Positions 119 through 52,025 of a stretch of 64,000 nt of DNA are shown in pieces. The DNA lies in assembly GCA_965248365.1 (NCBI GenBank), contig CBDFJA010000004.1, forward strand, positions 342,187 to 406,186. The letters run 5' to 3'. Position 1 is the stretch's first letter, and every line of letters starts with the position of its first letter. The position numbers and the translations under genes are program-made. Origin of the DNA: Bryobacterales bacterium (lineage in GTDB: Bacteria; Acidobacteriota; Terriglobia; Bryobacterales; UBA6623). The notes under the pieces are model-generated. The model was not told the DNA's origin. It worked only from the letters and a program-made list of their open reading frames with translations, and searched no databases.

Positions 119-628
119 TCATGGGTTGGGTTTAATCGCAAACAGTGCTGCGCCGTAGTCGACCGGCTGTGCGTTCGAGACGAATCGCTTGACGACGACG
201 CCCCCGATCTCTGCTTCGATCTCGTTCATCAGCTTCATGGCCTCGATGATGCAGAGCACCTGGCCGCTTTTGACTTTGTCGCCCACTTCGACGAAGGGGG
301 GGGCGTCGGGAGAGGACGCCTCATAGAAAGTCCCCACGATCGGGGCGCTTACCATCGCCAGATCCTCCTCTTGCTCGGCCGGTTCCTCGGGAGGCGCCGC
401 GGGAGCCGGGTTGCTCGCTGGCGCGACCGCCGGAGGCTGCGGGGCTTCGCCGATCGAGGGGGGGGCGGAAGCAACCACAACGTAAGGGGGCGAGTTAGGG
501 TTGTCTGACGGTCCACCGCGTGGAAAACGGCGGATGCGGAGCTTCTCATCTCCTTTTTCGAATTCGAGCTCCGCGATGTCCTTTTCGATGGCCGTGTCGA
601 TCAGGGCCTTGATCTGTCTTAAGTTCAT
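119..628 (-). CDS. accB: Acetyl-CoA carboxylase biotin carboxyl carrier protein
   Basis: N-terminal 'LIDTAIEKDIAELEFEKG', Pro/Ala linker, 'SAPIVGTFY', biotinylation motif 'IIEAMKLMNEI'. Confidence 0.95.
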   Translation of the reverse strand: MNLRQIKALIDTAIEKDIAELEFEKGDEKLRIRRFPRGGPSDNPNSPPYVVVASAPPSIGEAPQPPAVAPASNPAPAAPPEEPAEQEEDLAMVSAPIVGTFYEASSPDAPPFVEVGDKVKSGQVLCIIEAMKLMNEIEAEIGGVVVKRFVSNAQPVDYGAALFAIKPNP

Positions 629-675: not shown

Positions 676-1788
676 TCAAAACTGCCGAAGCTCGCGGGAT
701 GTCGAGGTGAGCACCTGGCAACCGTTTCGCTTGACGAGGACGACGTCTTCAAGCCGGGCTCCTCCGACGCCTTCCACGTAAGCGCCCGGTTCGATCGTCA
801 CGACCATACCGGCGGCTAGTTTCCCGTCCTGGTTGGGCCCGAGGCGCGGTCCCTCGTGAATCTCAAGCCCAAGTCCATGTCCCGTCGAGTGGGTAAAGGC
901 CTTGTCGAGCTTGAACTTGCGCAGCACCTGGCGGGCTTTGCGGTCCACGGTTTTGGCTTTAATACCGGACCGAACTTCGGCCACCGCCGCGGAATGAGCC
1001 TCTCGGACCGCTTTGTAAATCGTCCTGGCTCGCCGGTCCAGGCGCCCGAGGCACAGCATACGAGTCATATCACTCGTATAGCCATCGAGTATAGCACCCT
1101 GATCGACGACGACGAGGGCCGCGGGTGGGAGTCGGCGGCGGGTCGGTCGCGCATGCGGCAGCGCGGATCGCTCTCCCCCGGCGACGATGGTGTCAAACGC
1201 CGCCCCGTCGGCGCCGAGCCGGCGCATTTGGTACTCGATCTCGGCCGCCAGGCGCGCTTCCGTCCATGGGGGTCTGAGTTGCCGGCAAGCTCGCTCGAAG
1301 GCTTCGGAATTCAACTTGACCGCCCGGCGAATTCGTTCCACCTCGGCCGCGCTCTTGATCAGCCTGAGTGTTTCGACAACACCACTGAGCGGATCAAGAC
1401 GCCGGCCGCGAAGGCTTTCCCGGAGGTGAAGATACGTCTCGAACGAGACGCGGTTTTGCTCGAAGCCAAGGCGCCGGATGCGACGTTTCCCGATACTGTC
1501 GGTCACCGCGCGGAGAGGCTCGTCGCGGGCGACTACGATCTCGACGCCGTGGGTCTGCTGCCCGGCCTGTGTTCCGTAGCGCCCGTCCACATAGAGAACC
1601 GCCCGTTCCGGATCGACCAACAAGTAACCGAGGCTGCCGGTGAATCCCGTGAGGTAACGGAGGTTGGCGGGTCCCGCGACCAGAAAATATTCGTGCCCGC
1701 CGCGGGCCAGGGCCCTGCGTAGCGCCCTCAGGCGCGAGGGCCCTTCCGTTTCGAGTTGCCGCTCCCCAACCTGGGCGGCGGGGGTCAT
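676..1788 (-). CDS. Xaa-Pro aminopeptidase/dipeptidase (M24B, creatinase-N plus pita-bread domain)
   Basis: All five metal ligands present: VVDQG, GYTSDMTR, TGHGLGLEIHE, TIEPG, RLEDVV; upstream of accB. Confidence 0.9.
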   Translation of the reverse strand: MTPAAQVGERQLETEGPSRLRALRRALARGGHEYFLVAGPANLRYLTGFTGSLGYLLVDPERAVLYVDGRYGTQAGQQTHGVEIVVARDEPLRAVTDSIGKRRIRRLGFEQNRVSFETYLHLRESLRGRRLDPLSGVVETLRLIKSAAEVERIRRAVKLNSEAFERACRQLRPPWTEARLAAEIEYQMRRLGADGAAFDTIVAGGERSALPHARPTRRRLPPAALVVVDQGAILDGYTSDMTRMLCLGRLDRRARTIYKAVREAHSAAVAEVRSGIKAKTVDRKARQVLRKFKLDKAFTHSTGHGLGLEIHEGPRLGPNQDGKLAAGMVVTIEPGAYVEGVGGARLEDVVLVKRNGCQVLTSTSRELRQF

Positions 1789-4607: not shown

Positions 4608-6560
4608 CTACGACATCTCGGTGGCGGTGGTTGTTTCGTTGTCGACGCGGCGCGATCGATTGCCGGCGAAGCGGTCCGAGCCCCCGGGAAGCAGCTGAGA
4701 TTCCGTTTCCTTCAGGGCTCCGAGCCGAAGACGAAACTCCGTCCCCCTGCCGAGATCGCTGCTGAAATCGATTGTCCCGCCATGAAGCTGCACGACCCGA
4801 AACGTCATGGCTAATCCGATGCCGGAACCGCGTCCCTTGGTCGTGAAATACAAGTTATAGATCTTGTCGCGTATTTCGCCCGGTATTCCGCCTCCCTGGT
4901 CTCGAATCGTCAGCAGCCAGTCCGGGCCGGCCCTGCGGACGCCGATTTCCAGCTTTCCTCCCTGCGGCATGGCGTCAATGCCGTTGACGACAACGTTGAG
5001 AATTCCCTGCATCAGCAGATCGCGATCTCCCCGAACCTCAGCGTCGGCGACTTCGTTGTGAGTGACGATCTCGGCCTTCCGCCTCTCGGCTTCCGGGGCG
5101 ACGAGAGTACGGACTTCTTCGACCAGCTTCACCAGGTCAAGCGGTCGAAAATCGAGGTCGACCGGTCGGGTAAAATCCAAGAAACTCTTGACCACGCGAT
5201 CGAGCCGAGTGATCTCGCGGGCAATGACTTCAATCTCCGTCCGGACCGTTTCCGAGGAACCATCCAACTTGGACTTCAATACCTCCAGATGCAAAGCGAT
5301 CGAGTTCAGCGGGTTCTTGATTTCGTGCGCCGCCCCGCCGGTAAGACGGCTGATCGAGGCGAGGCGGTGGGAGACGTCCAATTGAGATTCGAGTTCGCGT
5401 CGGGGAGTGGCGTCGCGCAGCGTCACCAGCGTACCGACTCGTTCGTGGGTGGGGAACTGCTCGAGAACTTCAACACTGACCAGCAGGTGGATGGGCGTCT
5501 CTCCGTCGCGATCGAGCGTGACCGCGGAGTCCGCTACGGCTCGCCGCAGGTGAACGGCACTCTGAACCAGCGCCCCGAGATCGGTCGAGTCAGGGAAGAC
5601 CTCCTCGATCGCCGCTCCCATCATTTGCCAGCGGCCCCCGAGAATGCGCTCCGCCGCGCGCCCGGCCATGACCAGGCGGTTGTCATGGCCAAACAGTAGA
5701 ACGGCGTCCTCCATCCTCTCGAGCAACTGATCCACGTTGGCCTGTAATTGCGTACGGTCGGCCTGGACGCCTCTAAATTGCTCACCGAGCAGACTGAGCT
5801 TGGACTCGACCACGGCCACTTCCTTGGCGGGGTTCTTCGAGGGGCCGCGGTCCGCCAGGACTTCGCCGCGGCTGATACGGTCGATAATGTCGCTGATTCT
5901 GGCCAGCGGCCGGGACGCGATCCGCGAGGCGAGGACAGCCAGCAGGACCGACAGCAGCAGAGACACGGCGGAGACCACCGCCAGATCGCGGATACGGGGC
6001 ATCACTTGGCTTCGAAGCAGGACGGACGAGAGAATCACTCGAACCGTGAACAGCGGCGCTTGCTTCTCGAGTATGCCCAGACGCCGCGTCACCTCATAGT
6101 CTTGATTGCGGGCCAGGACCTCCTCGAGCTTGGCCCACAAAGGTTTTTCCTCGAAGTCTTCGAAGCGGGGCAGAGAATCGATCTTCCGCCCCCCCTTGGA
6201 GGGAAAGGAAGCGGCCAAGACACGGTCGTTCTTCCCGCTGACGAGCGCTTCGACAATCACCGGGGAACTCCCGACGAGCTTCTGAAGCAACGTAGACAAG
6301 CCGGCGTCTTGTTCGACGATCTCCGTCCAGATTTTCTCGACCTCTTCGTCGCTTTTCGGGGGAGGCTGCCAGCTAGGCGTTTGCTCGTTGACAATCTGGA
6401 GAATGAAGCTTTCCACCTGCGTGGCATTCATGTTCGCCAGCTCCAACGCGTCTCGAAAGCGAGTTTCGACCACGCCATGGACGTGGAGCAGGGAAAGAGC
6501 CAGCACCACCGTCACCACCAGGGCAACGATCGATAGCTGCAGGCGGGTTCTCAAAGACAT
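4608..6560 (-). CDS. Sensor histidine kinase (2 TM, HAMP, PAS-like, HisKA, HATPase)
   Basis: H-box 'AHEIKNPL', N-box 'NVVVNG', 'DQGGGI', 'FTTKGRGSGIGL'. Confidence 0.93.
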   Translation of the reverse strand: MSLRTRLQLSIVALVVTVVLALSLLHVHGVVETRFRDALELANMNATQVESFILQIVNEQTPSWQPPPKSDEEVEKIWTEIVEQDAGLSTLLQKLVGSSPVIVEALVSGKNDRVLAASFPSKGGRKIDSLPRFEDFEEKPLWAKLEEVLARNQDYEVTRRLGILEKQAPLFTVRVILSSVLLRSQVMPRIRDLAVVSAVSLLLSVLLAVLASRIASRPLARISDIIDRISRGEVLADRGPSKNPAKEVAVVESKLSLLGEQFRGVQADRTQLQANVDQLLERMEDAVLLFGHDNRLVMAGRAAERILGGRWQMMGAAIEEVFPDSTDLGALVQSAVHLRRAVADSAVTLDRDGETPIHLLVSVEVLEQFPTHERVGTLVTLRDATPRRELESQLDVSHRLASISRLTGGAAHEIKNPLNSIALHLEVLKSKLDGSSETVRTEIEVIAREITRLDRVVKSFLDFTRPVDLDFRPLDLVKLVEEVRTLVAPEAERRKAEIVTHNEVADAEVRGDRDLLMQGILNVVVNGIDAMPQGGKLEIGVRRAGPDWLLTIRDQGGGIPGEIRDKIYNLYFTTKGRGSGIGLAMTFRVVQLHGGTIDFSSDLGRGTEFRLRLGALKETESQLLPGGSDRFAGNRSRRVDNETTTATEMS

Positions 6561-6638
6561 GACGATCCGACCGTCCGGTGTCGCCTTGACGCGGCACGCC
6601 GCGAGCGTCCGCCACAATCGGCGAGGAGCGCCCGATGG

Positions 6639-8036
6639 TCAGTGGGTTCCATACTCTTTCAACTTGTTGTGCAGAGTCTTGAGGCTGATGTCAAGAATTT
6701 TCGCCGCGCGGGTCTTATTGTTGCCGGTGTGCTCGAGGGTGCGCAGCAGCAGCGCCTTTTCGGCCTCCCGCACCTTCGTGCCCACAGGGAGTCGGACGAC
6801 ATTCGGGTCGGCCGGCTCGGCCAGCGGCGCCTTCTCTCCCGGGGCGGAAAGGTTGCCCAGCAAGTGCGAGGGCAGGATGGTGCCTTCCCCCGCCAAGATC
6901 ACCGCGCGTTCTAAAACGTTACGCAATTCGCGGACGTTCCCCGGCCAGTGATAGCCGCGAAACTTCTCCACCACATCCGGGTGCAGATCGACCACCCGGC
7001 ATTCGTGCTTTTTGTTGAGATCCTCGACGAGCGCCTCGGCGCTCGGCAGTACATCTTCCTTGCGCTCGCGCAGCGGCGGCAGGTGGATGCGAAAAACGTT
7101 GAGCCGATAGTAGAGATCTTCCCGAATCTCGTTGTTGGCGACGGCGTCGTCAACGGGTTTATTGGTCGCCGCGATGACGCGGGTGTCGACCTCGATCTCT
7201 TTATCGCCGCCGAGGCGGCGCACCCGCGAGTCTTCCAGGACCCGCAGGAGCTTGGCTTGCGTGCCGACTGGCATGTCTCCGATTTCGTCAAGCAGCAGCG
7301 TGCCGCCGTTGGCCAGCTCGAAACACCCGGCGCGACGCTGAACGGCACCCGTGAAAGCGCCCTTTTCATGTCCGAACAATTCGCTTTCCATCAGCGATTC
7401 CGGCAAAGCCGCGCAGTTGATGGCGACGAAGGGGTCGTTCTTGCGCGGGCTGAGGGCGTGAACGGCGCGGGCGACCAGCTCCTTGCCCGTGCCGCTCTCG
7501 CCCGTGACCAGGATGGCCGCTTTGCTGGGCGCGACCTGCCGGATCGTCGAAAAGACCTCCTGCATGGCAGGGGAGGGCCCGACCAGCCCTTCGAGCAGCC
7601 CTTGATAGCTCAACTGGCGCTGCAGCCGGTCCGTTTCTTCAGTCAAGCGCCCCTGAGCGGCGGCGCGGTTGATCAGGACCCGAAGCGCGTTCGCGTCGAT
7701 TGGTTTCTCCAGAAACCAAAACGCGCCGAGGTCGCGGACGGTCTTGAGGGCATTTTCGATGCTGCCGAAGGCGGTCAACACGATGGCCGCCGGCCGCGGA
7801 CCGTCGACCGCCAGGCGGCGCAGCAGTTCGAAACCGTCCATGCGCGGCATGCTGAGGTCGGTCAGCATGACGTGAGCGGGGAAAGAACTCAGTTTTTCGA
7901 GGGCCTCCTGACCGTCGGAGGCCGTCTCGACGGCAAAACCCCAGGAAGAGACCAGACTGGCCAGACCATTTCGCTGGTCCTGCTCGTCGTCGACGATCAG
8001 CACGCGCGCCGGCGCGGGCGTCTGCGCTTCACTCAT
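6639..8036 (-). CDS. Sigma-54-dependent response regulator (NtrC/AtoC family)
   Basis: REC domain, 'GESGTGKE', 'FGHEKGAFTGA', 'LLDEIGDM', 'WPGNVREL', Fis-type HTH. Confidence 0.95.
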   Translation of the reverse strand: MSEAQTPAPARVLIVDDEQDQRNGLASLVSSWGFAVETASDGQEALEKLSSFPAHVMLTDLSMPRMDGFELLRRLAVDGPRPAAIVLTAFGSIENALKTVRDLGAFWFLEKPIDANALRVLINRAAAQGRLTEETDRLQRQLSYQGLLEGLVGPSPAMQEVFSTIRQVAPSKAAILVTGESGTGKELVARAVHALSPRKNDPFVAINCAALPESLMESELFGHEKGAFTGAVQRRAGCFELANGGTLLLDEIGDMPVGTQAKLLRVLEDSRVRRLGGDKEIEVDTRVIAATNKPVDDAVANNEIREDLYYRLNVFRIHLPPLRERKEDVLPSAEALVEDLNKKHECRVVDLHPDVVEKFRGYHWPGNVRELRNVLERAVILAGEGTILPSHLLGNLSAPGEKAPLAEPADPNVVRLPVGTKVREAEKALLLRTLEHTGNNKTRAAKILDISLKTLHNKLKEYGTH

Positions 8037-8335
8037 CGCCTCTTATTCTACTGGAGTGGGTTGACCGCTTTTCACGGCGCGCCGCAGATCGCCTCGAGTG
8101 TAACACTTGCCGGATTCACCAACTCCTAACCTCGAATCAACTATTCTTGGCCATCTTTCGGCCCGGCGGAGGCCCCGTTATTTAGCGTGACAAAACGAGC
8201 AGGCGATCGCCGCCGGTGTGGGGTTGGTCTGGGCGATCCGGGCAATCATAAGTTAACTTGATCGGCCCCGGAGAGGGAATCCGACGGCTTTCCCCCGAGT
8301 CGAACACAAGGCCTTCGATCGCGCTGGCTCGCCGG

Positions 8336-9274
8336 TCAGGCTCCGGCTGTTTCCGCGGAACCGGCCAGCATGCGGGCAAGCTGCTCCAGGCAGGCGTCTG
8401 AAATAGCGCGGTACAGCAGGACGTTCTTTCCATTCACCTGAGTACGTACGACGCGCTCGGCCATCAAGTCACAAAGGAAAATGTCGGCAGCCTCCCCTCG
8501 GAATTCCCCCCGTGCGGAGGTCAGCAGGTATTCCTGCAAAGAGTGCCTTTGCCCGGCGACGGGGGCAAGAACCGCGCGCGCCACTTCAAGAAAGTACCGG
8601 CTGACGGATACGAGCGCTATCAAGGACGGCTCTGTCAGGCTGCGAATCGTTTCTATGTGCTCGTCGACCGAGGAATAAGTGATCGGAACGAGCGCGCGTT
8701 TCGTGGGCAGCAGCGGCTTTATCTGCTCGACGTGGCCGGGAGCACAAATGACGAGCGCGCCCACCGCCCGGCTTCGATTCGATGTTAAATCATCCGGCGA
8801 ACACGCTTTGATGGGGATGTGAAACCTTTCCTTGATCTCCATGGGGATGAGCACGCGCAGGCCGGCGTCGTCGGAAACGACGAGCAGGTGGTCAGGCGGC
8901 CCTTCGAGCATGCGCTGCTGAAAACGCTCGCTCAGCTGCCGCAGCGAGTAGCCTTCGCGCTGCGCCGTACTCACCGTCGCATCAATCAATTCGTCCAAAT
9001 CCTTCGCCCCTGCCGCCGGCACGCGCTGTTGCTCCGAATGAGAACGCACGACCAAAGAGATCCCGCGGCGTTTCACAACCAGCCTCTGGAGAACCGGGTC
9101 TTGGTAGGCCTGACTGACCGTGTTGTGGTGAATTTTTAGTCTGCGGGCCAATGCCCTTACGCTTGGCAACGGATCGCCGGGCTTCAACTGGCCGGTGCCG
9201 ATGGACAGAACAATTTGCGCCGCCAGTTGCTCGTGAACCGGGACTTCGCTTTCTTTGCTGATGCGAATGTCCAT
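8336..9274 (-). CDS. GntR family (YtrA-like) transcriptional regulator with C-terminal extension
   Basis: 'VPVHEQL...LKPGDPLPSVRALARRLKIHHNTVSQAY'; divergent from the radical SAM operon. Confidence 0.85.
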   Translation of the reverse strand: MDIRISKESEVPVHEQLAAQIVLSIGTGQLKPGDPLPSVRALARRLKIHHNTVSQAYQDPVLQRLVVKRRGISLVVRSHSEQQRVPAAGAKDLDELIDATVSTAQREGYSLRQLSERFQQRMLEGPPDHLLVVSDDAGLRVLIPMEIKERFHIPIKACSPDDLTSNRSRAVGALVICAPGHVEQIKPLLPTKRALVPITYSSVDEHIETIRSLTEPSLIALVSVSRYFLEVARAVLAPVAGQRHSLQEYLLTSARGEFRGEAADIFLCDLMAERVVRTQVNGKNVLLYRAISDACLEQLARMLAGSAETAGA

Positions 9275-9431
9275 TTCCCAGCACCCTTGGTTAGCCGGCA
9301 CCCTCGGCGGGCCAGATCGAGGCCCGGCTCTCAGCTAGCTCCCCGTGTCGACAATCGTGCAGGATCGAAAAATGGGGGCTGCCACGAATTCGCTTCCCGT
9401 CATGGCCCGGAAAAAAGCGCTTAGCCTGAAG

Positions 9432-9459
9432 CGAATTGGCCGGCTGTACCCTATTTTTC
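9432..9459 (+). promoter_or_regulatory. Candidate cis-regulatory motif shared with 34545-34572
   Basis: CGAATTGGCCGGCTGTACCCTATTTTTC is 24/28 identical to the reverse complement of 34545-34572; both lie about 90-100 nt upstream of an operon start in the same orientation. Confidence 0.35.
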
Positions 9460-9560
9460 GCGACCTTCCGCATTGTGGCACTTCAGAAACTGTCACGCCA
9501 TGGGTTTTCGCTCCCGGCGTCCGCCCGTAAACTCGTTTTCAGAACACGGAGGAACGTCCC

Positions 9561-10928
9561 ATGAAATCGCGTCGCGTCTTATTGCTGGCCATGAGTGGTG
9601 TGCGGGTGAAAAGCGACGAGCTACGGCGGCTTGGCATGACCTTGCCCGGCTTTATCGAACGAGGGCAAGTCATTGCGTCCCTACCGACTCTTTCTTTGCT
9701 GACGCTGGCCGCTCACACGCCGGAGAACTGGGAGGCGGAGTACCGGGAGATCGACGAGCTCACCGATGGCGCTGCCGCTCAGATTGCCGCCGCCGGCTAC
9801 GACATCGTCGCCATCTCGGCCCTAACGGCGCGCATTCTCGACGCTTACGAAATCGCCGATCAGCTTCGAGAAGCCGGTGTTACGGTTGTGCTGGGAGGCC
9901 TCCACGTCACGGCGCTTCCCGAGGAGGCCCTGGCCCACGCGGACGCCATCGTCGCGGGCGAAGCCGAGCTGCTCTGGCCGGAGCTGCTCTCGGACTTCGA
10001 AACCGGCACTCTACGTCCCCGGTATTCATCCATGGAGAGCCGGCGGCGCTTTGACCTCGCGCAGGCTCGGGTCCCCCGCTACGACATGCTCGACGTCGGC
10101 CGGTACAACCGGCTCACACTCCAGACGAGCCGGGGTTGCCCGTTGGACTGCGAGTTCTGCGGCGCGTCGCGACTCATTTCGCCCTACAAGATCAAGCCCC
10201 TCGCTCAGGTACGGCGCGAGCTGGAAGCGATTCTCAACATCTGGCCCAAGCCCTTTATCGAATTGGCGGACGACAATACTTTCGTCTCCAAGAAGTGGTC
10301 TCGCGAGTTGGCGCAGCTGTTCTCCCAGTACCGAATCCGGTGGTTTACCGAAACCGATCTCTCGGTGGCTGACGATGATGAGCTTCTCGAGTTGCTGGCC
10401 CTTTCCGGTTGTGCGCAGGTTCTGGTCGGACTCGAGTCGGTGGACCCCGCCGCCCTCGGCCCTATCGACAGCCGGCGCTGGAAGCAGAGCCGGCTCGCCG
10501 GCTACGCCGCTAAGATCCGTAAGATCCAGTCTTACGGGATTACCGTCAACGGCTGCTTCATCTTTGGATTCGACCAGGACGATTTGAGCGTGTTCGACAG
10601 GACGAGGGAGTTTGTTCAGGCCAGCGGGCTGTCGGAAGTCCAAATCACCATCCTCACTCCGTTCCCCGGCACGGGGCTATACAACAGACTCCAATCCGAG
10701 GGACGGTTACTGAAGCCGATCTTCTGGGACTCCTGCACGCTCTTCGATGTGACCTATCGCCCGAAGCGGATGAGCGCCGACGAGCTCGAGGACGGCTTTC
10801 GCGGCCTGATGCGCGATCTCTACTCCCCGGCGCAGTCCGCCAGGCGCAAGGAGATTCGAAAGGAATGCTACGGGCGGCGGCGCGACGGCATGACGGCGGA
10901 CCGCCTGTCAGGAGACGAACATGTCTAG
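9561..10928 (+). CDS. B12-binding domain radical SAM protein
   Basis: Cobalamin-binding region 'VVLGGLHVTALPEE' followed by CxxxCxxC 'RGCPLDCEFC', 'ADDN', 'VGLES'. Confidence 0.92.
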   Translation: MKSRRVLLLAMSGVRVKSDELRRLGMTLPGFIERGQVIASLPTLSLLTLAAHTPENWEAEYREIDELTDGAAAQIAAAGYDIVAISALTARILDAYEIADQLREAGVTVVLGGLHVTALPEEALAHADAIVAGEAELLWPELLSDFETGTLRPRYSSMESRRRFDLAQARVPRYDMLDVGRYNRLTLQTSRGCPLDCEFCGASRLISPYKIKPLAQVRRELEAILNIWPKPFIELADDNTFVSKKWSRELAQLFSQYRIRWFTETDLSVADDDELLELLALSGCAQVLVGLESVDPAALGPIDSRRWKQSRLAGYAAKIRKIQSYGITVNGCFIFGFDQDDLSVFDRTREFVQASGLSEVQITILTPFPGTGLYNRLQSEGRLLKPIFWDSCTLFDVTYRPKRMSADELEDGFRGLMRDLYSPAQSARRKEIRKECYGRRRDGMTADRLSGDEHV

Positions 10929-11403
10929 CACTCCGACAACAATTGACGGCGTTGTCCACGCCCCTGGCCGTTCACAGGCACGGGGTCACTCGATGGGCGG
11001 TCTCAACCGCATCATCGCGTGGACGGGCATGGCCTGCGGGGCGGCCCTCGGCCTCATCATGGGTCTGTGGTCTTTTGACGGCCCCGTCGCTCCGCCGAAC
11101 TTCATCGGCGATTACACGGACACGGCGCGGCGGTTGCTGCGGCTAGGGCACATCGCTTGTTTCGGAATCGGCATACTGAACCTTTTGTTGGTGCGGGAGC
11201 TGTTTAACTCCGGGGATTCGCCCCGGGCCGCGCGCCATGCCGCGCAAGCCATGAATTTCGGCAATATCTTCCTGCCCCTCGTGCTCGTGATCGCCGCCGT
11301 CTACGCGCCGGCCAAATACCTGCTGCCTTTCCCGGCTCTTAGTGTTTTCGCCGCTCTTTGCCTGGCAGCGTATGTTGTGGGCGCCGGGAGGCAAAGGCGC
11401 TAG
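10921..11403 (+). CDS. Hypothetical 4-TM membrane protein
   Basis: Four hydrophobic segments, 'RRLLRLGHIACFG' with intramembrane His; start overlaps the rSAM stop. Confidence 0.7.
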   Translation: MSSTPTTIDGVVHAPGRSQARGHSMGGLNRIIAWTGMACGAALGLIMGLWSFDGPVAPPNFIGDYTDTARRLLRLGHIACFGIGILNLLLVRELFNSGDSPRAARHAAQAMNFGNIFLPLVLVIAAVYAPAKYLLPFPALSVFAALCLAAYVVGAGRQRR

Positions 11404-11417
11404 TAAACGATAAGCAG

Positions 11418-12680
11418 ATGCTGAGAATCTCATCCAAGGAATATCGAAGGCGCCTCGAATCGCTTCAGACCAGCGTCGCGGAAGCCGGCCTGGACGTGTT
11501 CATCGTCTCGGCCCTGGACAGCCTCTACTATCTGACAGGCGCCGGATTCGAGCCGCTGGAGCGCCCGTTCTTTCTGCTGATCCGTCCCCGCCAGGCTCCC
11601 ATCCTGTTAGTGCCAAAGCTCGAACAGGAACACATGAAGAAAGCCTGTAAGGTCACGGAGCAGGACATTCGCACCTACTGGGAATATCCGGCTCCGGCGG
11701 GTCGCGGGTGGCCGGACGCCCTCCATCACTTGATCGGGCAGGCCAAACAGATTGGGGTGGAGCCCACACTCCCGCAAGAAATCGCGGAAGCGATGAGGGG
11801 CTACACGATTCGTGTCGCGCCGCTGGTCGAACGGCTGCGGCTGATCAAGTCCCGCACCGAGATCGCGCTGATCCGTCGCGCGGCTCGCTACGCTGATCTT
11901 GGAGTTCACCGTCTCCTGGCAGCTTCGTACCGGGGGGCCAGCGTCGCTGAGGGTTTTGTCCAAACGCGCCTCGTCACTTTACAAATCATCCGCGAGGTCG
12001 ATGATTGGGATCCGGTGACAACGAAAGTGGTGATGGCCACCTGGCCAGCCCCCCGCAGCGCGATGCCACACTCGATTCCTGACCTCAACGACCGCCTCCG
12101 CGAGGGGCCGCACGTGGCGTTAGTGCTCAGCCGCGTCAACGGCTACGCCGCGGACAGCGAGCGAACGTATTTCACCGCACGGCCGTCAGCCGACGTGCGC
12201 GAAGCGTTTGCGGCCATGACGGAGGCCCGCCGTATCGCGCTGGGGATGATCAGACCCGGTGTGCCGTGTAGCGAAGTAGATGCGGCTGTGAACGACTATT
12301 TGCGAAAGGAAGGGTACAGCGGCGAAGACCGACGCTTACACCGCACCGGCCATGGGATCGGTCTCGGCAACCATGAAGCTCCTTGGATAGCCGAAGGCAG
12401 CGAGGACCGGTTGGCCGAAAACATGGTGATCAGCGTTGAGCCGGGGATCTACTTGCCCGGTGTCGGCGGCGTGCGACATTCCGATACCGTCCTGGTGACC
12501 AAGAACGGGCATGAGACGCTCACCCGCTTTCCACAAGAGCTAAGCTCGTTGGTTATCAGCGGCTGGAAACCGTTCACGCGCCTCAAAGGGATGGTTGTGC
12601 GGTGGAAGCTGGGGTTGACTGCGAAGTGCACCATACCCTCTGTGACCGCCGGATCGGCGGTTAGCGAGACGATGTCATGA
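11418..12680 (+). CDS. M24-family hydrolase with non-canonical metal site (creatinase-like)
   Basis: Creatinase-N 'LYYLTG', 'GYAADSERT', 'TGHGIGLGNHEAP', 'SVEPG', 'GVRHSD'; first Asp and last Glu ligands appear absent. Confidence 0.85.
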   Translation: MLRISSKEYRRRLESLQTSVAEAGLDVFIVSALDSLYYLTGAGFEPLERPFFLLIRPRQAPILLVPKLEQEHMKKACKVTEQDIRTYWEYPAPAGRGWPDALHHLIGQAKQIGVEPTLPQEIAEAMRGYTIRVAPLVERLRLIKSRTEIALIRRAARYADLGVHRLLAASYRGASVAEGFVQTRLVTLQIIREVDDWDPVTTKVVMATWPAPRSAMPHSIPDLNDRLREGPHVALVLSRVNGYAADSERTYFTARPSADVREAFAAMTEARRIALGMIRPGVPCSEVDAAVNDYLRKEGYSGEDRRLHRTGHGIGLGNHEAPWIAEGSEDRLAENMVISVEPGIYLPGVGGVRHSDTVLVTKNGHETLTRFPQELSSLVISGWKPFTRLKGMVVRWKLGLTAKCTIPSVTAGSAVSETMS

Positions 12681-13576
12681 ACACGAATCCCCGGGCGGAG
12701 CCTATGGCGACAAAATCAGCCAAACCCGCTGGCCCGCTGACCGCGCGGAGCCGGCGTCGGCGTCTGATCATCCCTTTGGGCTTTAGTCTTCCGATCTTTG
12801 TCGGCATCCTGCTGACGCCGCCTATAGCCCAAGACCTCACTTACCACGACTTCGTCGATCAGCGGTCCATCTTGGGCATCCCGCACATGTGGAACGTGAT
12901 GTCGAATTTGCCGTTCGCGGTGATCGGCGCATGGGGCTGCTGGTGGTTGCTCCGTCAAAAGGATCTCTCGAAAATCTTTGCCGAGCGCTGGGAACTCGCG
13001 GCCTACCTCGTCTTCCTCGTCGGAGAGTTCCTCACCTGTTTCGGCTCGGCCTACTACCACGCGGACCCGAATAACCACACCCTCGTCTGGGACCGCCTGG
13101 TCTTCAGCCTTCTGCTGACGTCGTTTTTCACGATCGTCGTCACGGAGTTTGTCAGCAAACGGGCCGGGAAAATCATGCTCGCGCCTGTGGTTCTGCTGGG
13201 CCTCTATAGCGTTTTGCACTGGTATGGGAGCGAGCTGGCCGGCGCGGGGGACCTGCGCGTATACATCGCGGTTCAGTTCTACCCGGTGATCGCAATTCCC
13301 CTCATCATTTGGATGTTCCCTTCGCGTTACGGGCAGAGCCGCCCGTTCCTGCTGCTGTGGGCACTGTTTGGGCTGGCCAAAATCTGTGAGCTGCTGGACG
13401 CCCCGATCTACGAGCTCAGCGGTTTCTGGAGCGGCCATACGTTCAAGCACCTGATCGCCGCGGCGGCCACCTACTGCGTCCTTTACACCCTTCGCCGGCG
13501 CAACGCGACGTTGTCGCTGGCGCGGGCCAACCCGGTTGTGGGCTCGCTGGCGGAGCCGTCAGGAGAGGTTCGATGA
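12677..13576 (+). CDS. Alkaline-ceramidase-like intramembrane hydrolase (CREST superfamily)
   Basis: About 7 TM, 'YHDFVDQR', 'NVMSNLPF', SxxxH 'GSAYYH', 'WDRL', HxxxH 'GHTFKHL'. Confidence 0.8.
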   Translation: MNTNPRAEPMATKSAKPAGPLTARSRRRRLIIPLGFSLPIFVGILLTPPIAQDLTYHDFVDQRSILGIPHMWNVMSNLPFAVIGAWGCWWLLRQKDLSKIFAERWELAAYLVFLVGEFLTCFGSAYYHADPNNHTLVWDRLVFSLLLTSFFTIVVTEFVSKRAGKIMLAPVVLLGLYSVLHWYGSELAGAGDLRVYIAVQFYPVIAIPLIIWMFPSRYGQSRPFLLLWALFGLAKICELLDAPIYELSGFWSGHTFKHLIAAAATYCVLYTLRRRNATLSLARANPVVGSLAEPSGEVR

Positions 13577-14093
13577 GAAGTGCTGCCGGAATTTTGGCGT
13601 CGATGCTTACTCTGTTTGCGTTCATCGCGGGAGTCCTAATGCTTTCCCTGTCATCTTGTACGACCGACCAAGAAAGCCCGGAGAACGACATGGACGCCAC
13701 GTACTTCTTACCCGACTACTTCACCGCTCGCTCCCGCTTTCGCGAGGGATCCAAAGCAGCGGGCGGAAGGCTCACATCGATGCAACTGGATGCCAAGGGT
13801 CCGGCGGGAGAAGATCTGACCATCGACATCGCTTGGTGCGGGGCCGAACAGCCGCGCGAGGTTCTTCTTCATTCATCCGGTCTCCACGGGGTCGAGGCCT
13901 TTGCCGGCTCGGCCATTCAGTTACAACTCTTAGATCAAGGCCCTCCGGTGATGCCCAAAGACGCCGCGCTCGTCCTGGTGCATGTCACCAATCCCTATGG
14001 AATGGCTTGGCTCAGGAGGTTCAATGAAAACAATGTCGATTTGAACCGTAATTTCGCCGAGCGAGAGGAGGACTACAAGGGGTCTCCCCCGAT
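13573..14093 (+). pseudogene. DUF2817 / M14-family metallo-deacylase, 3'-truncated by IS4
   Basis: Lipobox-like 'SLSSC', HxxE 'SGLHGVE', 'NPYG', 'NVDLNRNF'; frame runs into the IS terminal repeat at 14094. Confidence 0.85.
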
Positions 14094-15422
14094 CACTGCT
14101 GTCCGGCTAAAAGTCGAATAGAATCAATTGGTTGGGGTCATAGGGGGATTCGTTTGGGGAGTCGGATGGCTGGAGTGCCTGTAAAAGGGGCATTTTTTCG
14201 AATTGCGTAACGCTGAGAATCTGTAGAATCTGGTAAAGACTCGCTTCCAGCCCGAGCCGTTTCCGGACGATGGCGATGAGCACGTAAATCGAGACAGCGA
14301 TCCAGATATGCGTCTTGACGGCGTTCTCGCTGGTGCCGTAAAACGAGTTGATTCGCAGATGTTGCTTGATCCACTTGAAGAACAACTCAATCTGCCAACG
14401 CGACTTGTAGATGTGGGCGATGGTCAGCGCCGGGAGCGCGAAGTTGTTGGTCAGAAACTTCAGCCGCTTGTTCGTCCGGGCGTCGAAGTAACTGACCCTC
14501 CGCAACGGGTCGGGATAGGCTTGGGCCGATTCGATGGCAGCCAGTATGACGGTCTGATCCGAGCGCAAGCCCGTGGATTTGTCGACGGGATGCGAGTAGC
14601 GCCGTTGGAGCAAGATGTTCTTCTTGGTTCGCACGACGAAGAACGACGAGCAGAGAGTGAACACGAAGAGGCGTTCGAAATCGACGTAGGCCCGATCCAT
14701 GACGTAGAACGCGCCGGCCTCCGGGCCGATCTCGTCGAGGATGTTGATGTCGTGCACTTTGCCTCCAGTAATGCGGATGAACGTGGGAATATTGCCGTGC
14801 AGATCCAGCAGCGTGTGCATCTTCACGGCGGCCTTTTGCTTGCGGAATCTCGCCCACGGAAACAGCGACAGGCAGAGGTCGATTGTTGTCGAGTCGAGAG
14901 CGTACAGAGTCTGGTCCAAGTCCACACCGATCGGGTCGTGGGCATATAACGGCCGTGCCATGCCAATCAAGACCTGCGCGAAGTCCGCGTAGATCCGCCA
15001 GTCGCGCGACTCGTTCGCATCGGCCAGTGTCGAGCGCGCTACCCTGCCGCGGAATCCCATGTGGTAGAGTTTGCCGTGCATCGAACGCAGGCACGTCTCG
15101 ATGTCGCGGAGGCTTGCCCGATAGGTCAGCTGGGCGAATGCCATCGCAAGAAACTGATCCCAGCAGGAGAAACTTTTCAGATAGGAATCGCCGCGGTAGC
15201 GCGATACACATTTCTGAAACTCTTTGCTCGGTAGGTGCTCGATCAGTTGGGAGAAAACCGTACGGCCAAGGTTCATCCCTCATTGTGCCGCGTCCGGATG
15301 CTCCGTTCAGGCGACCATTTGCGGCCTCGGGATTTCAAATCGTTCCCGGGCAAAACAGGCCATAAGACATTGAGCGGTCGAGACTTACCGTCCGATGGCG
15401 CAACTTTCCCCGGACAGCACTG
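14094..15422 (-). mobile_element. IS4-family insertion sequence, copy 1 (1329 bp)
   Basis: 13-bp IRs CAGTGCTGTCCGG / CACTGCTGTCCGG; no target duplication (TCCCCCGAT vs ATTAAAACT). Confidence 0.96.
14107..15276 (-). CDS. IS4 transposase (DUF4372 + DDE)
   Basis: 'ALDSTTIDL', 'VMDRAY', 'YKSRWQIELFFKWIKQHL'. Confidence 0.95.
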   Translation of the reverse strand: MNLGRTVFSQLIEHLPSKEFQKCVSRYRGDSYLKSFSCWDQFLAMAFAQLTYRASLRDIETCLRSMHGKLYHMGFRGRVARSTLADANESRDWRIYADFAQVLIGMARPLYAHDPIGVDLDQTLYALDSTTIDLCLSLFPWARFRKQKAAVKMHTLLDLHGNIPTFIRITGGKVHDINILDEIGPEAGAFYVMDRAYVDFERLFVFTLCSSFFVVRTKKNILLQRRYSHPVDKSTGLRSDQTVILAAIESAQAYPDPLRRVSYFDARTNKRLKFLTNNFALPALTIAHIYKSRWQIELFFKWIKQHLRINSFYGTSENAVKTHIWIAVSIYVLIAIVRKRLGLEASLYQILQILSVTQFEKMPLLQALQPSDSPNESPYDPNQLILFDF

Positions 15423-15487
15423 ATTAAAACTCTATACACGCGGGAATAGAGAACTTATGGTAGAAATCTATACATCTACATACATTT

Positions 15488-15683
15488 CTACACCACCTCT
15501 GGGTCTGGGTCAGGCTCCGTGGAGGACTCCCGTTGGAAAGTTTCGGCATCCAGACCTATCCCACACCAGAAGATGCCCTCCTTTTCGCGTTTGCACTCGA
15601 ACCCTTTGTCCTGCAGCCTGTCCTTGAAGGCTTTTCGAGTGAGAATGTCCTCCTCGTTTGCCGCACACCAGGACTTGTAGGGG
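15488..15683 (-). pseudogene. C-terminal winged-helix fragment of a phage/plasmid P4/D5-type primase, fused in frame to the pfkA fragment
   Basis: 'YKSWCAANEEDILTRKAFKDRLQDKGFECKR...WCGIGL' matches the typical tail of these primases. Confidence 0.6.
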
Positions 15684-16018
15684 CCGGGATCTACCTCCTT
15701 ACACCCGCCCAGTCTTTTCTTGACGTGCTGGGGCAAACGGTCTACCTTCAGCCGCGAAGGTTTGGTCCGAGAGGTATGGAGAAACGTGCCCCCGGTGCGG
15801 TCGATCGTACGGGTGTTGGCACGGGTCAGGTCCACGAAATATTCCTCATCGAAGCCGTCGTCAAGATTGGGGTATGTCAAACCGGCCCAGCCGCGGCGAA
15901 TGCCGACGACTCGGTAACCCGGCTTCGACGTGGCCCCGTAGACGACCGACTTGATGACGGAGTTCAAGCCGGGAACGTCGCCGCCGCCGGTCAGGATTGC
16001 AATGGTTTTGTCGGCCAT
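15684..16018 (-). pseudogene. pfkA: 6-phosphofructokinase N-terminal fragment (about 112 aa)
   Basis: 'IAILTGGGDVPGLNSVI', 'VVGIRRGWAGL', 'RTGGTFLHTSRT'; GGDD motif and remainder missing. Confidence 0.85.
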
Positions 16019-16695: not shown

Positions 16696-17643
16696 CTAGG
16701 TGTGGAGGCTCAACAGGTTGTTCCGGGGAGGAGGGAGTCGGCTGATAGGGGGATGATAGCCGAGGCTGGCGTGGGGGCGATGCCAATGGTAGTCGTGGAG
16801 CCAGGGGAGCAGATGGTTGGCGCGCTGGAGGGAGGAGCAGTAGGAGCGGGCATAGGCCCATTCGCGGAGGGCGGTTTGGATGAAGCGCTCGGCCTTGCCG
16901 TTGGTGCGAGGGGTGTAGGGGCGGGTGAAGCGGTGGCGGATGCCGAGGCGGCGGCAAGTACGACGGAAGTGGCGGGAGCGGTACCAGGAGCCATTGTCGG
17001 TGAGCAGGCGTCGGATGCGGATGCCAAGCGAGCCATAGTAGGCGTGGGCGAGGAGAAGGAACTGGGCAGCGGAAAGGCTGCGCTCATCGGGCAGGATCTG
17101 GGAGAAGGCGATGCGGGAATGGTCGTCGACGGCGACGTGGACGAACTCCCAGCCGGCGGCGCGGGAGCGTCGGGTCTTATCGCCGGTAACGCGGTGACCG
17201 GCGTGCTGGAAGCGGCCGAGCTTTTTGATGTCGAGATGCAGTAGATCGCCGGGACGGTGATGTTCGTAGCGGCGAACGGGGGGAGCGGGTTCGAGATCGC
17301 GGAGACGGTTGAGTCCGGCGCGACCGAGGAGGCGGCTGACGGTGGCCGGGGATAGCCGCAGGGTTTGGGCGATGCGGCGGCCCGTCCAACGTTGTCGGCG
17401 CAGGGCGAGGACGCGGTCAACGACGGCTTGCGGGGTGCGGCGCGGGCTATGCCGGGGACGCGAAGAGCGATCGTAGAGACCGGCTTCGCCTTCGCCGCGG
17501 TAGCGGGCCAGCCAACGGCGGGCGGTGCGTTCTGAGACGTCTCGGGCCGCCGCGGCGGCCCGAGGCGTCTCTCCAGCGAGGATGCATCGAACCAAAAGGG
17601 CTCGGCCTTTGGGCGTCAATCGGGCATTCTGATGGATGTTCAT
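16696..17643 (-). CDS. IS481 transposase
   Basis: 'MNIHQNARLTPKGR', 'LHLDIKKLG', 'LLTDNG', 'PRTNGKAERFIQT'; stop codon supplied by the target CTAG. Confidence 0.95.
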   Translation of the reverse strand: MNIHQNARLTPKGRALLVRCILAGETPRAAAAARDVSERTARRWLARYRGEGEAGLYDRSSRPRHSPRRTPQAVVDRVLALRRQRWTGRRIAQTLRLSPATVSRLLGRAGLNRLRDLEPAPPVRRYEHHRPGDLLHLDIKKLGRFQHAGHRVTGDKTRRSRAAGWEFVHVAVDDHSRIAFSQILPDERSLSAAQFLLLAHAYYGSLGIRIRRLLTDNGSWYRSRHFRRTCRRLGIRHRFTRPYTPRTNGKAERFIQTALREWAYARSYCSSLQRANHLLPWLHDYHWHRPHASLGYHPPISRLPPPRNNLLSLHT

Positions 17644-28390: not shown

Positions 28391-28505
28391 ATCCTAAGTG
28401 TAGAGCAATTCAGAAGCCGTTCCGAGGCGAAGGCCGAGCGACCTTCTTGCCCGGATCTGATCAGGCTCCGGCGCGAAGCGGGGCCCGTGATATCCTGAAA
28501 ATGCG

Positions 28506-51672: not shown

Positions 51673-52025
51673 ACCTTGCCTGTTCGCCGGGCAGACTGAA
51701 TGTTCGTTTATGGGAAGCTGCCATCGTGAAACCTCCAAGTGAGATGACTTTCTAGTAGGGTATGATATTTTCATATCGAATTCCAGTGCTGCGTGGCGGT
51801 GGCATTGGTGCATGAATTGACGTAAGCGGGCACGCTAGCTGTGGGGGTGGGATCCCGGGGCGGGAAGGTGGTAGACATGCGCTCCCTCTTCGGTGTCGCT
51901 ATTCAATGCCGAAGGTTTCGGGAAGCAAAACTGAGGTAATCTGTGTACATGGGGACAAAACACGAACGGCAGTCACAAGCGCCTCTGCCTCAGTGTGAAA
52001 TCAAACCCAAGGAGACCCAAAGGCC

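Follow-up and report, generated by a model that had tools for sequence, protein, structure and literature searches.

Organization of the operon and loss of its last gene

The window, a 64,000-nt stretch of DNA from a soil-dwelling, Bryobacterales-like acidobacterium, contains an operon of five co-directional genes and, divergent from it, a gene for a GntR-family regulator (8336..9301, minus strand; Pfam GntR, E 2e-9). The ORF list places these genes at the coordinates given in an earlier sequence-only reading of the same DNA. The operon, encoded on the plus strand, begins with a gene for a radical SAM enzyme with a B12-binding domain (rSAM; 9561..10928, assigned by Pfam), which is overlapped by 8 nt (10921 versus 10928) by the adjacent gene for an integral membrane protein modeled by AF2 with four helices (TM4; 10921..11403). 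These genes are followed by those for an atypical M24 hydrolase with an ATG at 11418 (11418..12680; Pfam Creatinase_N and Peptidase_M24), a membrane hydrolase resembling CREST proteins and alkaline ceramidases (CER; 12677..13576; sub-threshold match to Pfam Ceramidase), and a DUF2817 lipoprotein deacylase that is now a pseudogene (13573..14091 in an ORF of 13573-14121; Pfam DUF2817). ATGA overlaps connect the M24 gene with that of CER (12677/12680) and the latter with the DUF2817 gene (13573/13576), and no intrinsic terminator stood out in a scan of the operon interior. Two separable modules make up the operon, and the cluster is an undescribed variant assembled from known kinds of enzymes.

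An IS4-family insertion sequence (14092..15424, minus strand) closes the operon. It is bordered by 20-nt inverted repeats (14092-14111 and 15405-15424) and encodes a transposase (14107-15276) that matches NCBIfam transpos_IS4_1 with 248 bits. Similar terminal repeats are present at other places in the window, which is rich in IS elements. The full-length DUF2817 orthologue of a relative with 94% identity (L001) comprises 396 amino acids, of which tblastn recovered only residues 1-172 in the window; the C-terminal segment of about 220 residues was absent anywhere in it. The gene has therefore been both interrupted, as had been recognized earlier, and partly deleted. Because the IS4 insertion and the adjacent deletion destroyed the last gene, the gene set of the operon is incomplete here.

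The radical SAM enzyme represents an orphan clade

The rSAM protein combines B12-binding, Radical_SAM, and DUF4070 domains (Pfam), and C193, C197, and C200 are invariant in an alignment of its homologues. A pattern scan yielded at least 575 tblastn-confirmed genome matches from many phyla, across which the identity of the enzyme amounts to 50-68%. Its clade is an orphan, as all NCBIfam equivalog scores are at or below 82 bits against cut-offs of 250-750, and none of the characterized class B families in NCBIfam was matched at its cut-off. HpnJ is the best match and BchE is also among the top ones; the ApyD and RiPP C-methyltransferase families were matched far below their cut-offs. With HpnP, HpnR, HpnJ, and BchE, rSAM has the three-part domain architecture in common and probably also a hydrophobic or membrane-resident substrate; however, it scores only 47-82 bits against cut-offs of 480-650 and is therefore not an equivalog of any of these enzymes. 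In addition, rSAM has an obligatory small membrane-protein partner, a type of protein for which, to our knowledge, no need has been reported for the hopanoid enzymes or BchE. A Pfam survey of flanking genes found no hopanoid or bacteriochlorophyll gene context around rSAM loci.

The AF2 model of rSAM (pLDDT 87.7) has its best full-length counterpart among solved structures in AprD4 (PDB 6fd2; Foldseek E 6e-19, TM 0.71), followed by MgmA, TsrM, OxsB, and CysS. AprD4 is also the best sequence match of rSAM in the PDB, but the identity of the two proteins is only 18-20%, and the substrate of AprD4 is a soluble aminoglycoside, handled inside an antibiotic cluster. AprD4 is a radical SAM 1,2-diol dehydratase that does not methylate, and in the paper on its structure it is said to be devoid of cobalamin. 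Hence, the B12-like domain of rSAM is no proof of methyl transfer, and the radical methylation step put forward in the sequence-only reading is an assumption, given this fold relationship and the lack of a class B family match at cut-off.

A small membrane protein is the partner of the radical SAM enzyme

No Pfam or NCBIfam family covers TM4. Its AF2 model (pLDDT 80.5) predicts four transmembrane helices; R70, R71, R74, and H77 are among the invariant residues, and the arginine cluster sits where helix 2 begins. An alternative start at 10993 would yield a protein of about 136 amino acids, the length of most homologues. The top folds, styrene-oxide isomerase (E 0.15) and MAPEG/LTC4 synthase, are small trimeric enzymes with four transmembrane helices; TM4 is modeled as a four-helix bundle of similar size and has one invariant histidine. 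However, these weak matches lack significance (E 0.15-1.4, TM near 0.5) and are unaccompanied by sequence similarity to either enzyme, and we treat the modeled resemblance as a lead only.

The four-helix protein had previously been treated as incidental, yet a small membrane protein proved to be the true universal partner of rSAM. In 78 of 80 genome loci, the rSAM gene adjoins a member of one of three unannotated and mutually unrelated small membrane-protein families (MP233 alone at 41 loci, TM4 at 35 in all, and MP136 at 16 in all), with an intergenic gap near zero. Among the 121 genes flanking rSAM, any other Pfam family is represented at most 4 times, and the pair stands alone in at least 15 phyla. 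The basic function of rSAM thus needs no hydrolases, since a hydrolase partner is absent at 75 of the 80 loci. Module 1 of the operon is this autonomous pair of the cytoplasmic rSAM and a small polytopic membrane protein, a place taken in other lineages by MP136, MP233, or both.

Amide hydrolases of the second module

The amide hydrolases of module 2 vary and are centered on the M24 protein, whose atypical nature, noted already in the sequence-only reading, was borne out by alignment to prolidases. The first aspartate of the metal site is deleted and the last glutamate is replaced by serine, so that two of five metal ligands are missing, and the same is true of all four orthologues. A C-terminal extension of about 40 amino acids is conserved as well. 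Its best PDB and NCBIfam matches are Xaa-Pro dipeptidases; since the large subfamily is conserved at 63-90% identity in spite of the two lost ligands, we consider M24 a specialized enzyme and not a housekeeping prolidase. A second M24 protein encoded in the window (676-1788, minus strand) is canonical.

The polytopic CER protein scores 24.5 bits against the Pfam Ceramidase cut-off of 32.5, which an orthologue (L060) passes with 37 bits. Like ACER3 and other members of the CREST superfamily (alkaline ceramidases and adiponectin-receptor-like proteins), it has an intact catalytic motif of invariant residues, S124-x3-H128, D139 located 11 residues on, and H254-x3-H258, which we take to be the equivalent of the ACER3 zinc site. 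It differs from these proteins in being bacterial, in falling below the Pfam gathering score, and in having no sequence match in the PDB. Elsewhere, CER-family genes are mostly solitary or lie beside Lnb_N or DAG-kinase-like genes (neighbors: Lnb_N, 9; DAGK_cat, 3; Acyltransferase, 2).

The remnant of the DUF2817 protein, an M14-like or AstE/AspA-like deacylase, matches its Pfam profile with an E value of 4e-43 over positions 1-123 of 341 only, and weakly resembles the murein tripeptide amidase MpaA in NCBIfam. The lipobox ascribed to it is visible as LSSC at the N-terminus. In relatives, the partners in module 2 comprise M28, M20, alpha/beta-hydrolase, Amidohydro_2, and penicillin-amidase-type acylase proteins. 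Most accessory hydrolases are membrane-anchored, either by a lipobox or by an N-terminal anchor (DUF2817, M28, M20, and the acylase). Such anchors are no proof of lipid substrates, and every hydrolase family found here has ordinary soluble peptides among its substrates as well.

Ectoine catabolism (DoeA/DoeB and EnuR/EhuR) combines parts of the same kinds, a hydrolase of the M24 fold, a zinc deacylase of the AstE/AspA type (M14-like), and a regulator of the GntR family, and DoeA and EhuR appear as weak NCBIfam matches in this cluster. However, the DoeA models are matched with 43-60 bits (cut-offs, 575-613), the regulator studied here is devoid of the MocR aminotransferase domain, and the additional components of this cluster, namely membrane proteins, a lipoprotein signal, and rSAM, are all foreign to ectoine catabolism.

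The regulator and its candidate operator

The GntR protein, whose conserved start is probably the methionine at 9274, consists of an N-terminal winged helix-turn-helix followed by a C-terminal domain of unclassified type, about 220 amino acids long, that has no sequence match in Pfam or the PDB. At 10 loci, the gene for an orthologue with 40-95% identity diverges from an rSAM, CER, or M24 gene. Alignment of the intergenic regions of six loci pointed to a candidate operator, GTGGCACTTCAGAAACTGTCAC (9475..9496, plus strand), a 22-bp palindrome with the consensus GTGACA-N10-TGTCAC and an asymmetric GAAA center, which precedes the rSAM start by 65 nt. The window contains no second copy, and 100 shuffles gave 0 matches; in a PWM scan of 1.87 Mb, true sites were cleanly separated from background, with held-out matches in two loci (L084 and L093) where the regulator gene faces that of CER. 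Wherever this regulator is encoded, the candidate operator lies upstream of rSAM, CER, M24, and DUF2817 genes, and it is kept down to 40% GntR identity. It also precedes penicillin amidase and PspA genes, and more weakly M28, and the regulon of one relative includes a penicillin/acyl-amidase and PspA. Judged by its position, this element may be bound by GntR; as it is common to both modules, these would be jointly repressed until an effector appears.

Linkage of the genes across genomes

The gene order GntR|rSAM-TM4-M24-CER-DUF2817 is found in the window and in L001; the four intact genes are 93-96% identical, and synteny is confined to positions 8172-14055. Other relatives have the orders GntR|CER-rSAM-TM4-M24-x-DUF2817 (L081) or GntR|CER-rSAM-TM4-MP233 (L082), and two carry insertions inside the cluster (L002 and L005). 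The exact five-gene set occurs, in variable order, only in close Bryobacterales relatives. Among 80 rSAM-centered loci, M24, DUF2817, or GntR genes lie near rSAM only in Bryobacterales, and rSAM is present at only 1 of 80 CER-centered loci. Outside this order, the five-gene combination is thus not conserved. That they act as a functional unit in the lineage is supported by the overlapping stops and starts, by linkage kept despite shuffled gene order, and by the shared candidate operator.

Combinations of rSAM and TM4 with the same M24 subfamily and a second metallo-amidohydrolase exist in three architectures, two of which have a distant rSAM (48% identity): GntR|TM4-rSAM-DUF2817-M24 (L165) and TetR-rSAM-TM4-ABH-M20-M24-x-GDPD (L168). 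In a neighbor-joining tree, the rSAM proteins of these architectures form three separate lineages, although the mutual independence of the samples L163-L173, which include L165 and L168, is uncertain. In the M24 neighborhoods sampled outside this operon type, a GntR gene is present in 5 of 9 and the rSAM-TM4 pair in only 2 of 9; rSAM is therefore dispensable for the core job of M24. One of the GntR|M24 loci (L171) contains genes for an M19 dipeptidase and an MR_MLE-type epimerase nearby.

Proposed function and alternative explanations

The explanation that we tentatively consider best, with a probability of roughly 0.4, is a GntR-controlled two-module operon for the inducible turnover or remodeling of an amide-linked membrane amphiphile; we favor inducible turnover because most accessory hydrolases are membrane-anchored. 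The sequence-only reading is supported in part: the functional unit within the lineage is retained, and the radical methylation is kept only as an assumption. An amide-linked lipid or lipopeptide as substrate is plausible in view of the anchored hydrolases, the acylase and PspA in the regulon of a relative, and the lipid-type neighbors of CER. GntR would repress both modules together until its effector arrives. Membrane-bound or periplasmic hydrolases would then strip acyl and amino-acid parts off the substrate, possibly an N-acyl amino acid or aminolipid, a ceramide-like lipid, a lipopeptide, or the N-acylated end of a lipoprotein, and M24, with its reduced dinuclear metal site, would finish the breakdown in the cytoplasm. 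The rSAM-TM4 pair may handle a carbon center beyond the reach of the hydrolases: the TM4-type protein would dock rSAM at the membrane or present a membrane-embedded substrate to it, and rSAM would perform a radical C-H functionalization, for which methylation is the prior expectation and dehydration or rearrangement are equally allowed by the data.

It is rather unlikely that GntR instead controls ordinary peptidases (prolidase-like M24, M14-like, M28, and M20) that recycle cell-wall stem peptides, D-amino-acid peptides, or N-blocked peptides, with rSAM-TM4 and CER as co-regulated passengers serving a separate membrane function. All hydrolase families belong to classical peptidase clans, and the resemblance of M24 to Xaa-Pro dipeptidases and, weakly, of DUF2817 to MpaA, the dipeptidase and epimerase genes in L171, and the absence of rSAM from most GntR|M24 loci are in line with such a role; however, M24 has lost two of five metal ligands with a canonical paralogue already present in the window, and an intramembrane CREST hydrolase, an Ntn acylase, and PspA likewise belong to the regulon. 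Recruitment of rSAM-TM4 to M24 on at least three occasions is hard to square with unrelated passengers. Just as doubtful is a biosynthetic role, in which a bulk membrane lipid is methylated, or modified in another way, by rSAM-TM4, as hopanoids are by HpnP and HpnR, and the hydrolases are unrelated proteins brought under one regulator by lineage-specific juxtaposition. The domain architecture common to hopanoid methylases, HpnJ as best NCBIfam match, the obligatory membrane partner with no other conserved neighbor at 75 of 80 loci, and the cross-phylum identity of 50-68%, expected for one common substrate, would fit. Yet rSAM is connected with the hydrolases in this operon through the shared candidate operator and through translational coupling, the M24 association recurs in three architectures, and rSAM reaches the family cut-off of no characterized lipid methylase; furthermore, the phyletic pattern of rSAM is patchy, and we know of no bulk lipid that fits it.

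Considerably less probable is the modification by rSAM of a peptide or of a residue in its membrane partner, comparable to MgmA/Mmp10 acting on MCR or to RiPP C-methyltransferases, with the peptidases processing the product. The ApyD and RiPP family matches, MgmA as second-best solved fold, and conservation of the enzyme next to differing partner families, a pattern of enzyme-substrate pairs, point this way, but a conserved short precursor gene or exporter is absent, the gaps between rSAM and partner are near zero, the RiPP family scores are far below cut-off, and 50-68% identity across phyla is not to be expected with three unrelated "substrates." Slightly less probable still is that no pathway exists and that IS-driven rearrangement gathered decaying genes in an IS-rich genome, as the IS-rich window, the truncated last gene, the restricted synteny with L001, and the insertions in L002 and L005 might suggest. 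Against this stand four intact genes highly similar to those of L001, the overlapping stops and starts, a candidate operator maintained even with the most distant regulators, and a linkage that survives shuffled gene orders.

Organization of the operon and its truncated last gene

Six-frame ORF listing confirmed the arrangement that the sequence-only reading had described, i.e., five genes that run in one direction and a regulator gene divergent from them. The gntR gene (8336-9301, minus strand) is divergent from a plus-strand series that begins with the gene for the B12-domain radical SAM enzyme (rSAM; 9561-10928), which matches the B12-binding, Radical_SAM and DUF4070 models of Pfam/NCBIfam. 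It is followed by the gene for a protein with four transmembrane helices (TM4; 10921-11403), which overlaps rSAM by 8 nt, and by that for a Creatinase_N plus Peptidase_M24 protein (M24), which extends from an ATG at 11418, 14 nt past the TM4 stop, to 12680. The gene for a ceramidase-like (CREST) protein (CER; 12677-13576, with a sub-threshold match to Ceramidase) overlaps M24 through an ATGA, and a further ATGA joins CER to the DUF2817 gene (13573-14121), whose product covers the first third of its model only. An IS4-family transposase (Pfam/NCBIfam) lies downstream, and its IS is bounded by inverted repeats of 20 nt (14092-14111 and 15405-15424).

Since the intact 396-aa DUF2817 orthologue of locus L001, the closest relative among the matches listed, aligns to the window over residues 1-172 only, the gene is interrupted, as had been noted, and its 3' part is lost; the remainder past about residue 172 is absent from the window. 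The HGVE motif is kept, but only about 172 of the 396 residues remain, so the catalytic domain formed by HxxE plus a downstream His ligand is incomplete. The window copy carries a lipobox, and its relatives carry either a lipobox or a signal anchor. L001 and the window share 93.7% nucleotide identity over just the operon (window 8172-14055, L001 8148-14505). Both flanks are wholly different, and the cluster therefore occupies differing genomic contexts in two close genomes.

The radical SAM enzyme is paired with small membrane proteins

To survey the rSAM side, we searched 80 species-representative genome loci, taken from at least 575 confirmed matches, with six window proteins; all ORFs of these loci were clustered and HMMs were built to define partner families. 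In 78 of the 80 loci rSAM adjoins a member of one of three families: TM4, MP136 or MP233 (about 233 aa). MP233 is the sole partner in 41 loci, TM4 is a neighbour in 35 in all, and MP136 occurs in 16, in 13 of them together with TM4. A single family or a fusion behind the three was rejected, as hhalign probabilities did not exceed 0.5%. None of them has a Pfam family, and a Pfam search with TM4 through 36 homologues gave no match below E 0.03. Other conserved neighbours of the pair were not found: of 121 flanking genes, no other Pfam family accounted for more than 4.

The enzyme itself is widespread. Among the matches listed, its closest relatives are encoded by MAGs labelled Bryobacterales (88-95% identity), and identity across phyla is 50-68%. 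It is carried by at least 15 phyla, including Acidobacteriota, Bacteroidota, Verrucomicrobiota, Planctomycetota, Myxococcota, Armatimonadota and Chloroflexota, and is found in Desulfobulbaceae, Proteobacteria and others. In a neighbour-joining tree, calculated without support values, TM4-type enzymes form a basal grade and MP233-type enzymes a derived clade; the Bryobacterales enzymes nest in the MP233 clade yet pair with TM4, and locus L082 possesses both partners. The AlphaFold2 model of TM4 (pLDDT 80.5) has four transmembrane helices. The loop between helices 1 and 2 is conserved, and where helix 2 begins, R70, R71, R74 and H77 are among the invariant residues. Fold searches returned only non-significant likeness to styrene-oxide isomerase (E 0.15) and MAPEG. 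An Omnitrophota MAG (L073, 4816-8581) contains three tandem rSAM paralogues after an MP136-like gene, of which the second and third share 34% and 31% identity with the query.

Predicted chemistry of the radical SAM enzyme

The architecture of rSAM is that of class B enzymes, with an N-terminal B12-binding domain (PF02310, E 5e-15) followed by a radical SAM core (PF04055, E 2e-14) bearing a CxxxCxxC motif, whose three cysteines (C193, C197, C200) do not vary among 20 diverse homologues. There was no equivalog match to the characterised class B members (HpnP/R/J, BchE, PhpK, TsrM, TokK, MgmA and others); the best NCBIfam score, that for HpnJ, was 81.8 bits against a cut-off of 577.6, and all others were lower. 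Sequence matches in the PDB were at E 1e-11 or weaker. With the AlphaFold2 model (pLDDT 87.7), the best solved fold was AprD4 (TM 0.71), followed by MgmA, TsrM, OxsB and CysS. AprD4 is a diol dehydratase, and its B12-like domain is reported to lack cobalamin. Since the closest fold is AprD4-like and no characterised family comes near its cut-off, the radical methylation step previously proposed for this operon is a reasonable prior, not a finding. Residues 14-47 (nt ~9600-9701) are near-invariant across phyla and form the least confident part of the model (pLDDT 56-71); they may constitute a partner or membrane interface. A role as brGDGT/GMGT methylase was considered and discarded: the published accounts of Gmm, Tes and Mss deal with other families, and the spread of rSAM, which includes Flavobacteriia, Verrucomicrobiota and Myxococcota, is unlike that of tetraether producers. 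The literature surveyed on DUF4070, DUF2817 and B12-rSAM membrane-lipid enzymes contained nothing that bears on this clade.

The hydrolases and the ceramidase-like protein

The M24 protein aligns with prolidases end to end (PF01321, Creatinase_N, E 6e-15; PF00557, the pita-bread catalytic domain, E 2e-39). Its five-ligand site (Asp, Asp, His, Glu, Glu) is incomplete: a deletion of four residues takes in the first Asp, Ser stands in place of the last Glu, and the second position is occupied by Asp or Glu. These losses are common to four orthologues and justify the label "atypical" that it had been given; a C-terminal extension of about 40 aa is conserved. A second M24 protein in the window (676-1788, minus strand) is canonical, with five intact metal ligands, and its gene adjoins one for an AccB-like biotin carboxyl carrier (119-628, minus strand). 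It is probably a housekeeping Xaa-Pro peptidase, and its presence underlines that the operon M24 is a specialised paralogue. Scores for DoeA of ectoine catabolism were 59.5 and 42.7 bits in the window against cut-offs of 575 and 613, below equivalog level.

The window CER protein scores 24.5 bits against PF05875 (cut-off 32.5), and its orthologue from locus L060 reaches 37.0 bits. S124, H128, D139, H254 and H258 are invariant in five orthologues at 30-93% identity and provide the Ser-x3-His, Asp and His-x3-His set of CREST proteins; these residues would correspond to the metal and water ligands on the transmembrane helices of ACER3. No sequence relatives of CER were found in the PDB. Bacterial ceramidase-like proteins are common (578 confirmed matches). 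In 80 metagenome loci, the most common neighbour of the family was Lnb_N, the N-terminal domain of a lipoprotein N-acyltransferase (9 of 106 flanking ORFs), and DAG-kinase-like (3) and acyltransferase (2) genes came next.

A GntR regulator with a predicted operator

The regulator possesses an N-terminal wHTH (Pfam). Its C-terminal ~220 aa gave no match in Pfam, NCBIfam or PDB sequences, even with a 10-sequence profile, and no effector domain of a named subfamily (FadR, HutC, MocR, YtrA, AraR) was recognised in these searches. When the intergenic regions of the GntR operons were aligned, one block stood out as conserved, TTGTGACACTTCAGAAACTGTCAC, a 22-bp palindrome (GTGACA-N10-TGTCAC) that occurs once in the window (9475-9496) and in none of 100 shuffles. 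Across 1.87 Mb of retrieved DNA, every site with at most one mismatch belonged to a locus that carries this GntR. Such sites precede the gene that opens the operon, be it rSAM, CER, TM4 or M24, and also DUF2817 where this gene is separated (L081, L002, L005); in the M24 locus L163, the operator also precedes a penicillin-amidase gene and pspA. Its orientation relative to the downstream gene is identical at all sites. In a PWM scan the training sites scored 26.6-38.6 bits, and the best untrained matches, in two metagenome loci with a GntR gene divergent from CER (L084, L093), scored 20.7 bits. In L165, the site ahead of an M28 gene reached 17.7 bits, only marginally above the background (17.2 bits or less). 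The positions of these sites suggest that GntR may bind the predicted 22-bp operator. Upstream of the operator-preceded penicillin-amidase gene, L163 (1-1882) encodes a carrier-protein/reductase-kinase fusion, a CDP-alcohol phosphatidyltransferase and a PlsC-type acyltransferase, which look like a lipid-synthesis trio.

The five-gene set is lineage-specific

In the 80 rSAM-centred loci, M24, DUF2817 and GntR were found only in Bryobacterales, and CER in Bryobacterales plus one Arenicellales MAG (L060; CER-TM4-rSAM). Even within Bryobacterales the gene order varies. The window and L001 share GntR|rSAM-TM4-M24-CER-DUF2817 (the bar marks divergence), L081 has GntR|CER-rSAM-TM4-M24-x-DUF2817 (x, another gene), L082/L004 have GntR|CER-rSAM-TM4-MP233 without M24 and DUF2817, and the clusters of L002 and L005 are full of insertions. 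Of 80 metagenome loci centred on CER (L083-L162), one contained rSAM and two contained GntR; the CER family is mostly independent of rSAM. By the test that the sequence-only reading had set, co-occurrence of the five homologues in other genomes, the idea of one conserved pathway with the three hydrolases as fixed components does not hold: the full set was present outside Bryobacterales in none of the 80 rSAM-centred loci, the partners are confined as described, and L082/L004 dispense with two of the hydrolases.

A narrower linkage was apparent from the M24 side, where nine neighbourhoods of the subfamily (63-76% identity) were surveyed. L165 carries GntR|TM4-rSAM(48% identity)-DUF2817-M24, and L168, beside GlpD, carries TetR-rSAM(48% identity)-TM4-alpha/beta-hydrolase-M20-M24-x-GDPD. 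M24 stands alone opposite GntR in L163, L166, L170 and L171, with two Amidohydro_2 genes in L172, and in a LysR-M28-M24 arrangement in L173; the ninth locus has neither GntR nor rSAM-TM4. Overall, the rSAM-TM4 pair meets the M24 subfamily in three architectures and three rSAM lineages; as the flanks of the pair otherwise rarely repeat, this is unlikely to be due to chance.

A possible role in turnover of membrane amphiphiles

All accessory enzymes under the operator are amide hydrolases, most with a lipobox or an N-terminal membrane anchor, and the operator-linked set includes the intramembrane CER, an Ntn acylase of the penicillin-amidase family and the membrane-stress protein PspA. The penicillin-amidase family includes AHL and lipopeptide acylases. 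Because of these anchored hydrolases, CER, the Ntn acylase, PspA and the membrane-bound partner of rSAM, the operon is most economically read as one that, when induced, would turn over or remodel an amphiphile of the membrane with an amide linkage. The amide-lipid remodelling envisaged at the outset survives in spirit, shorn of the conserved five-gene pathway, the fixed hydrolases and the methylation. Rival explanations are that the operon scavenges peptides, that it performs pure lipid tailoring, that rSAM modifies a peptide or protein, and that the cluster is a chance mosaic. 

More specifically, and with a probability of roughly one in four, rSAM and TM4, MP136 or MP233 would form a so far unrecognised two-component radical C-H system acting on a membrane-embedded amide lipid or the lipidated end of a lipoprotein; in Acidobacteria, a new subfamily of GntR regulators would, by way of its 22-bp operator, tie this system into a dedicated regulon that dismantles the lipid. 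If true, this would define a new lipid modification together with its catabolic route. It would also offer a way into the function of a large orphan clade of radical SAM enzymes with a B12 domain, which is present in culturable bacteria as well (Niabella, Aurantibacter, Ancylomarina, Foetidibacter, Sorangium), give three unannotated membrane-protein families a defined genetic partner, and add a new GntR subfamily, a predicted operator and a membrane-anchored amidohydrolase regulon in soil Acidobacteria. Membrane-lipid chemistry of soil Acidobacteria serves palaeoclimate proxies and, to our knowledge, is poorly mapped to genes. Should the reading fail, the cluster would be a clean example of a mobile two-gene cassette recruited into lineage-specific operons. 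All proteins except TM4 belong to known superfamilies; in the literature we found no description of the rSAM clade or its three membrane partners, nor of the regulon, its operator and the GntR subfamily. The cluster is well defined and testable.

Genomic surroundings

Directly upstream of the gntR gene lie genes for a histidine kinase and a sigma-54-dependent response regulator (4608-8036, minus strand). A comparable pair stands ahead of the M24 cluster of L172, but a link to this two-component system was rejected, since the regulators are alike only generically (NtrC-type, 40%) and there was no histidine kinase match. No Rfam match to a cobalamin or other riboswitch was obtained upstream of rSAM at E 0.1 or better (7500-16000). 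A plasmid origin was likewise dismissed (no megablast match in PLSDB for 8100-14100), as was a defence system, for which PADLOC gave only a generic 30-bit radical SAM domain match.

The 64-kb window is rich in IS elements, with several copies present. Related IS4-type terminal repeats recur at 28373-28392, 30650-30669 and 51655-51674, and an IS481-family transposase gene (16696-17643, minus strand) lies 1.3 kb past the first IS. The first ~96 residues of a 176-aa ORF at 15488-16018 (minus strand) match phosphofructokinase and the rest do not; it is probably a gene fragment from rearrangement beside the IS. In L002 and L005, an unannotated ORF of 309-358 aa (L002 11305-12234, L005 11338-12414) and a duplicated rSAM C-terminus (L002 12287-12388, L005 12295-12396) separate rSAM from TM4, and M24 is fragmented into several parts; insertions have struck this cluster repeatedly.
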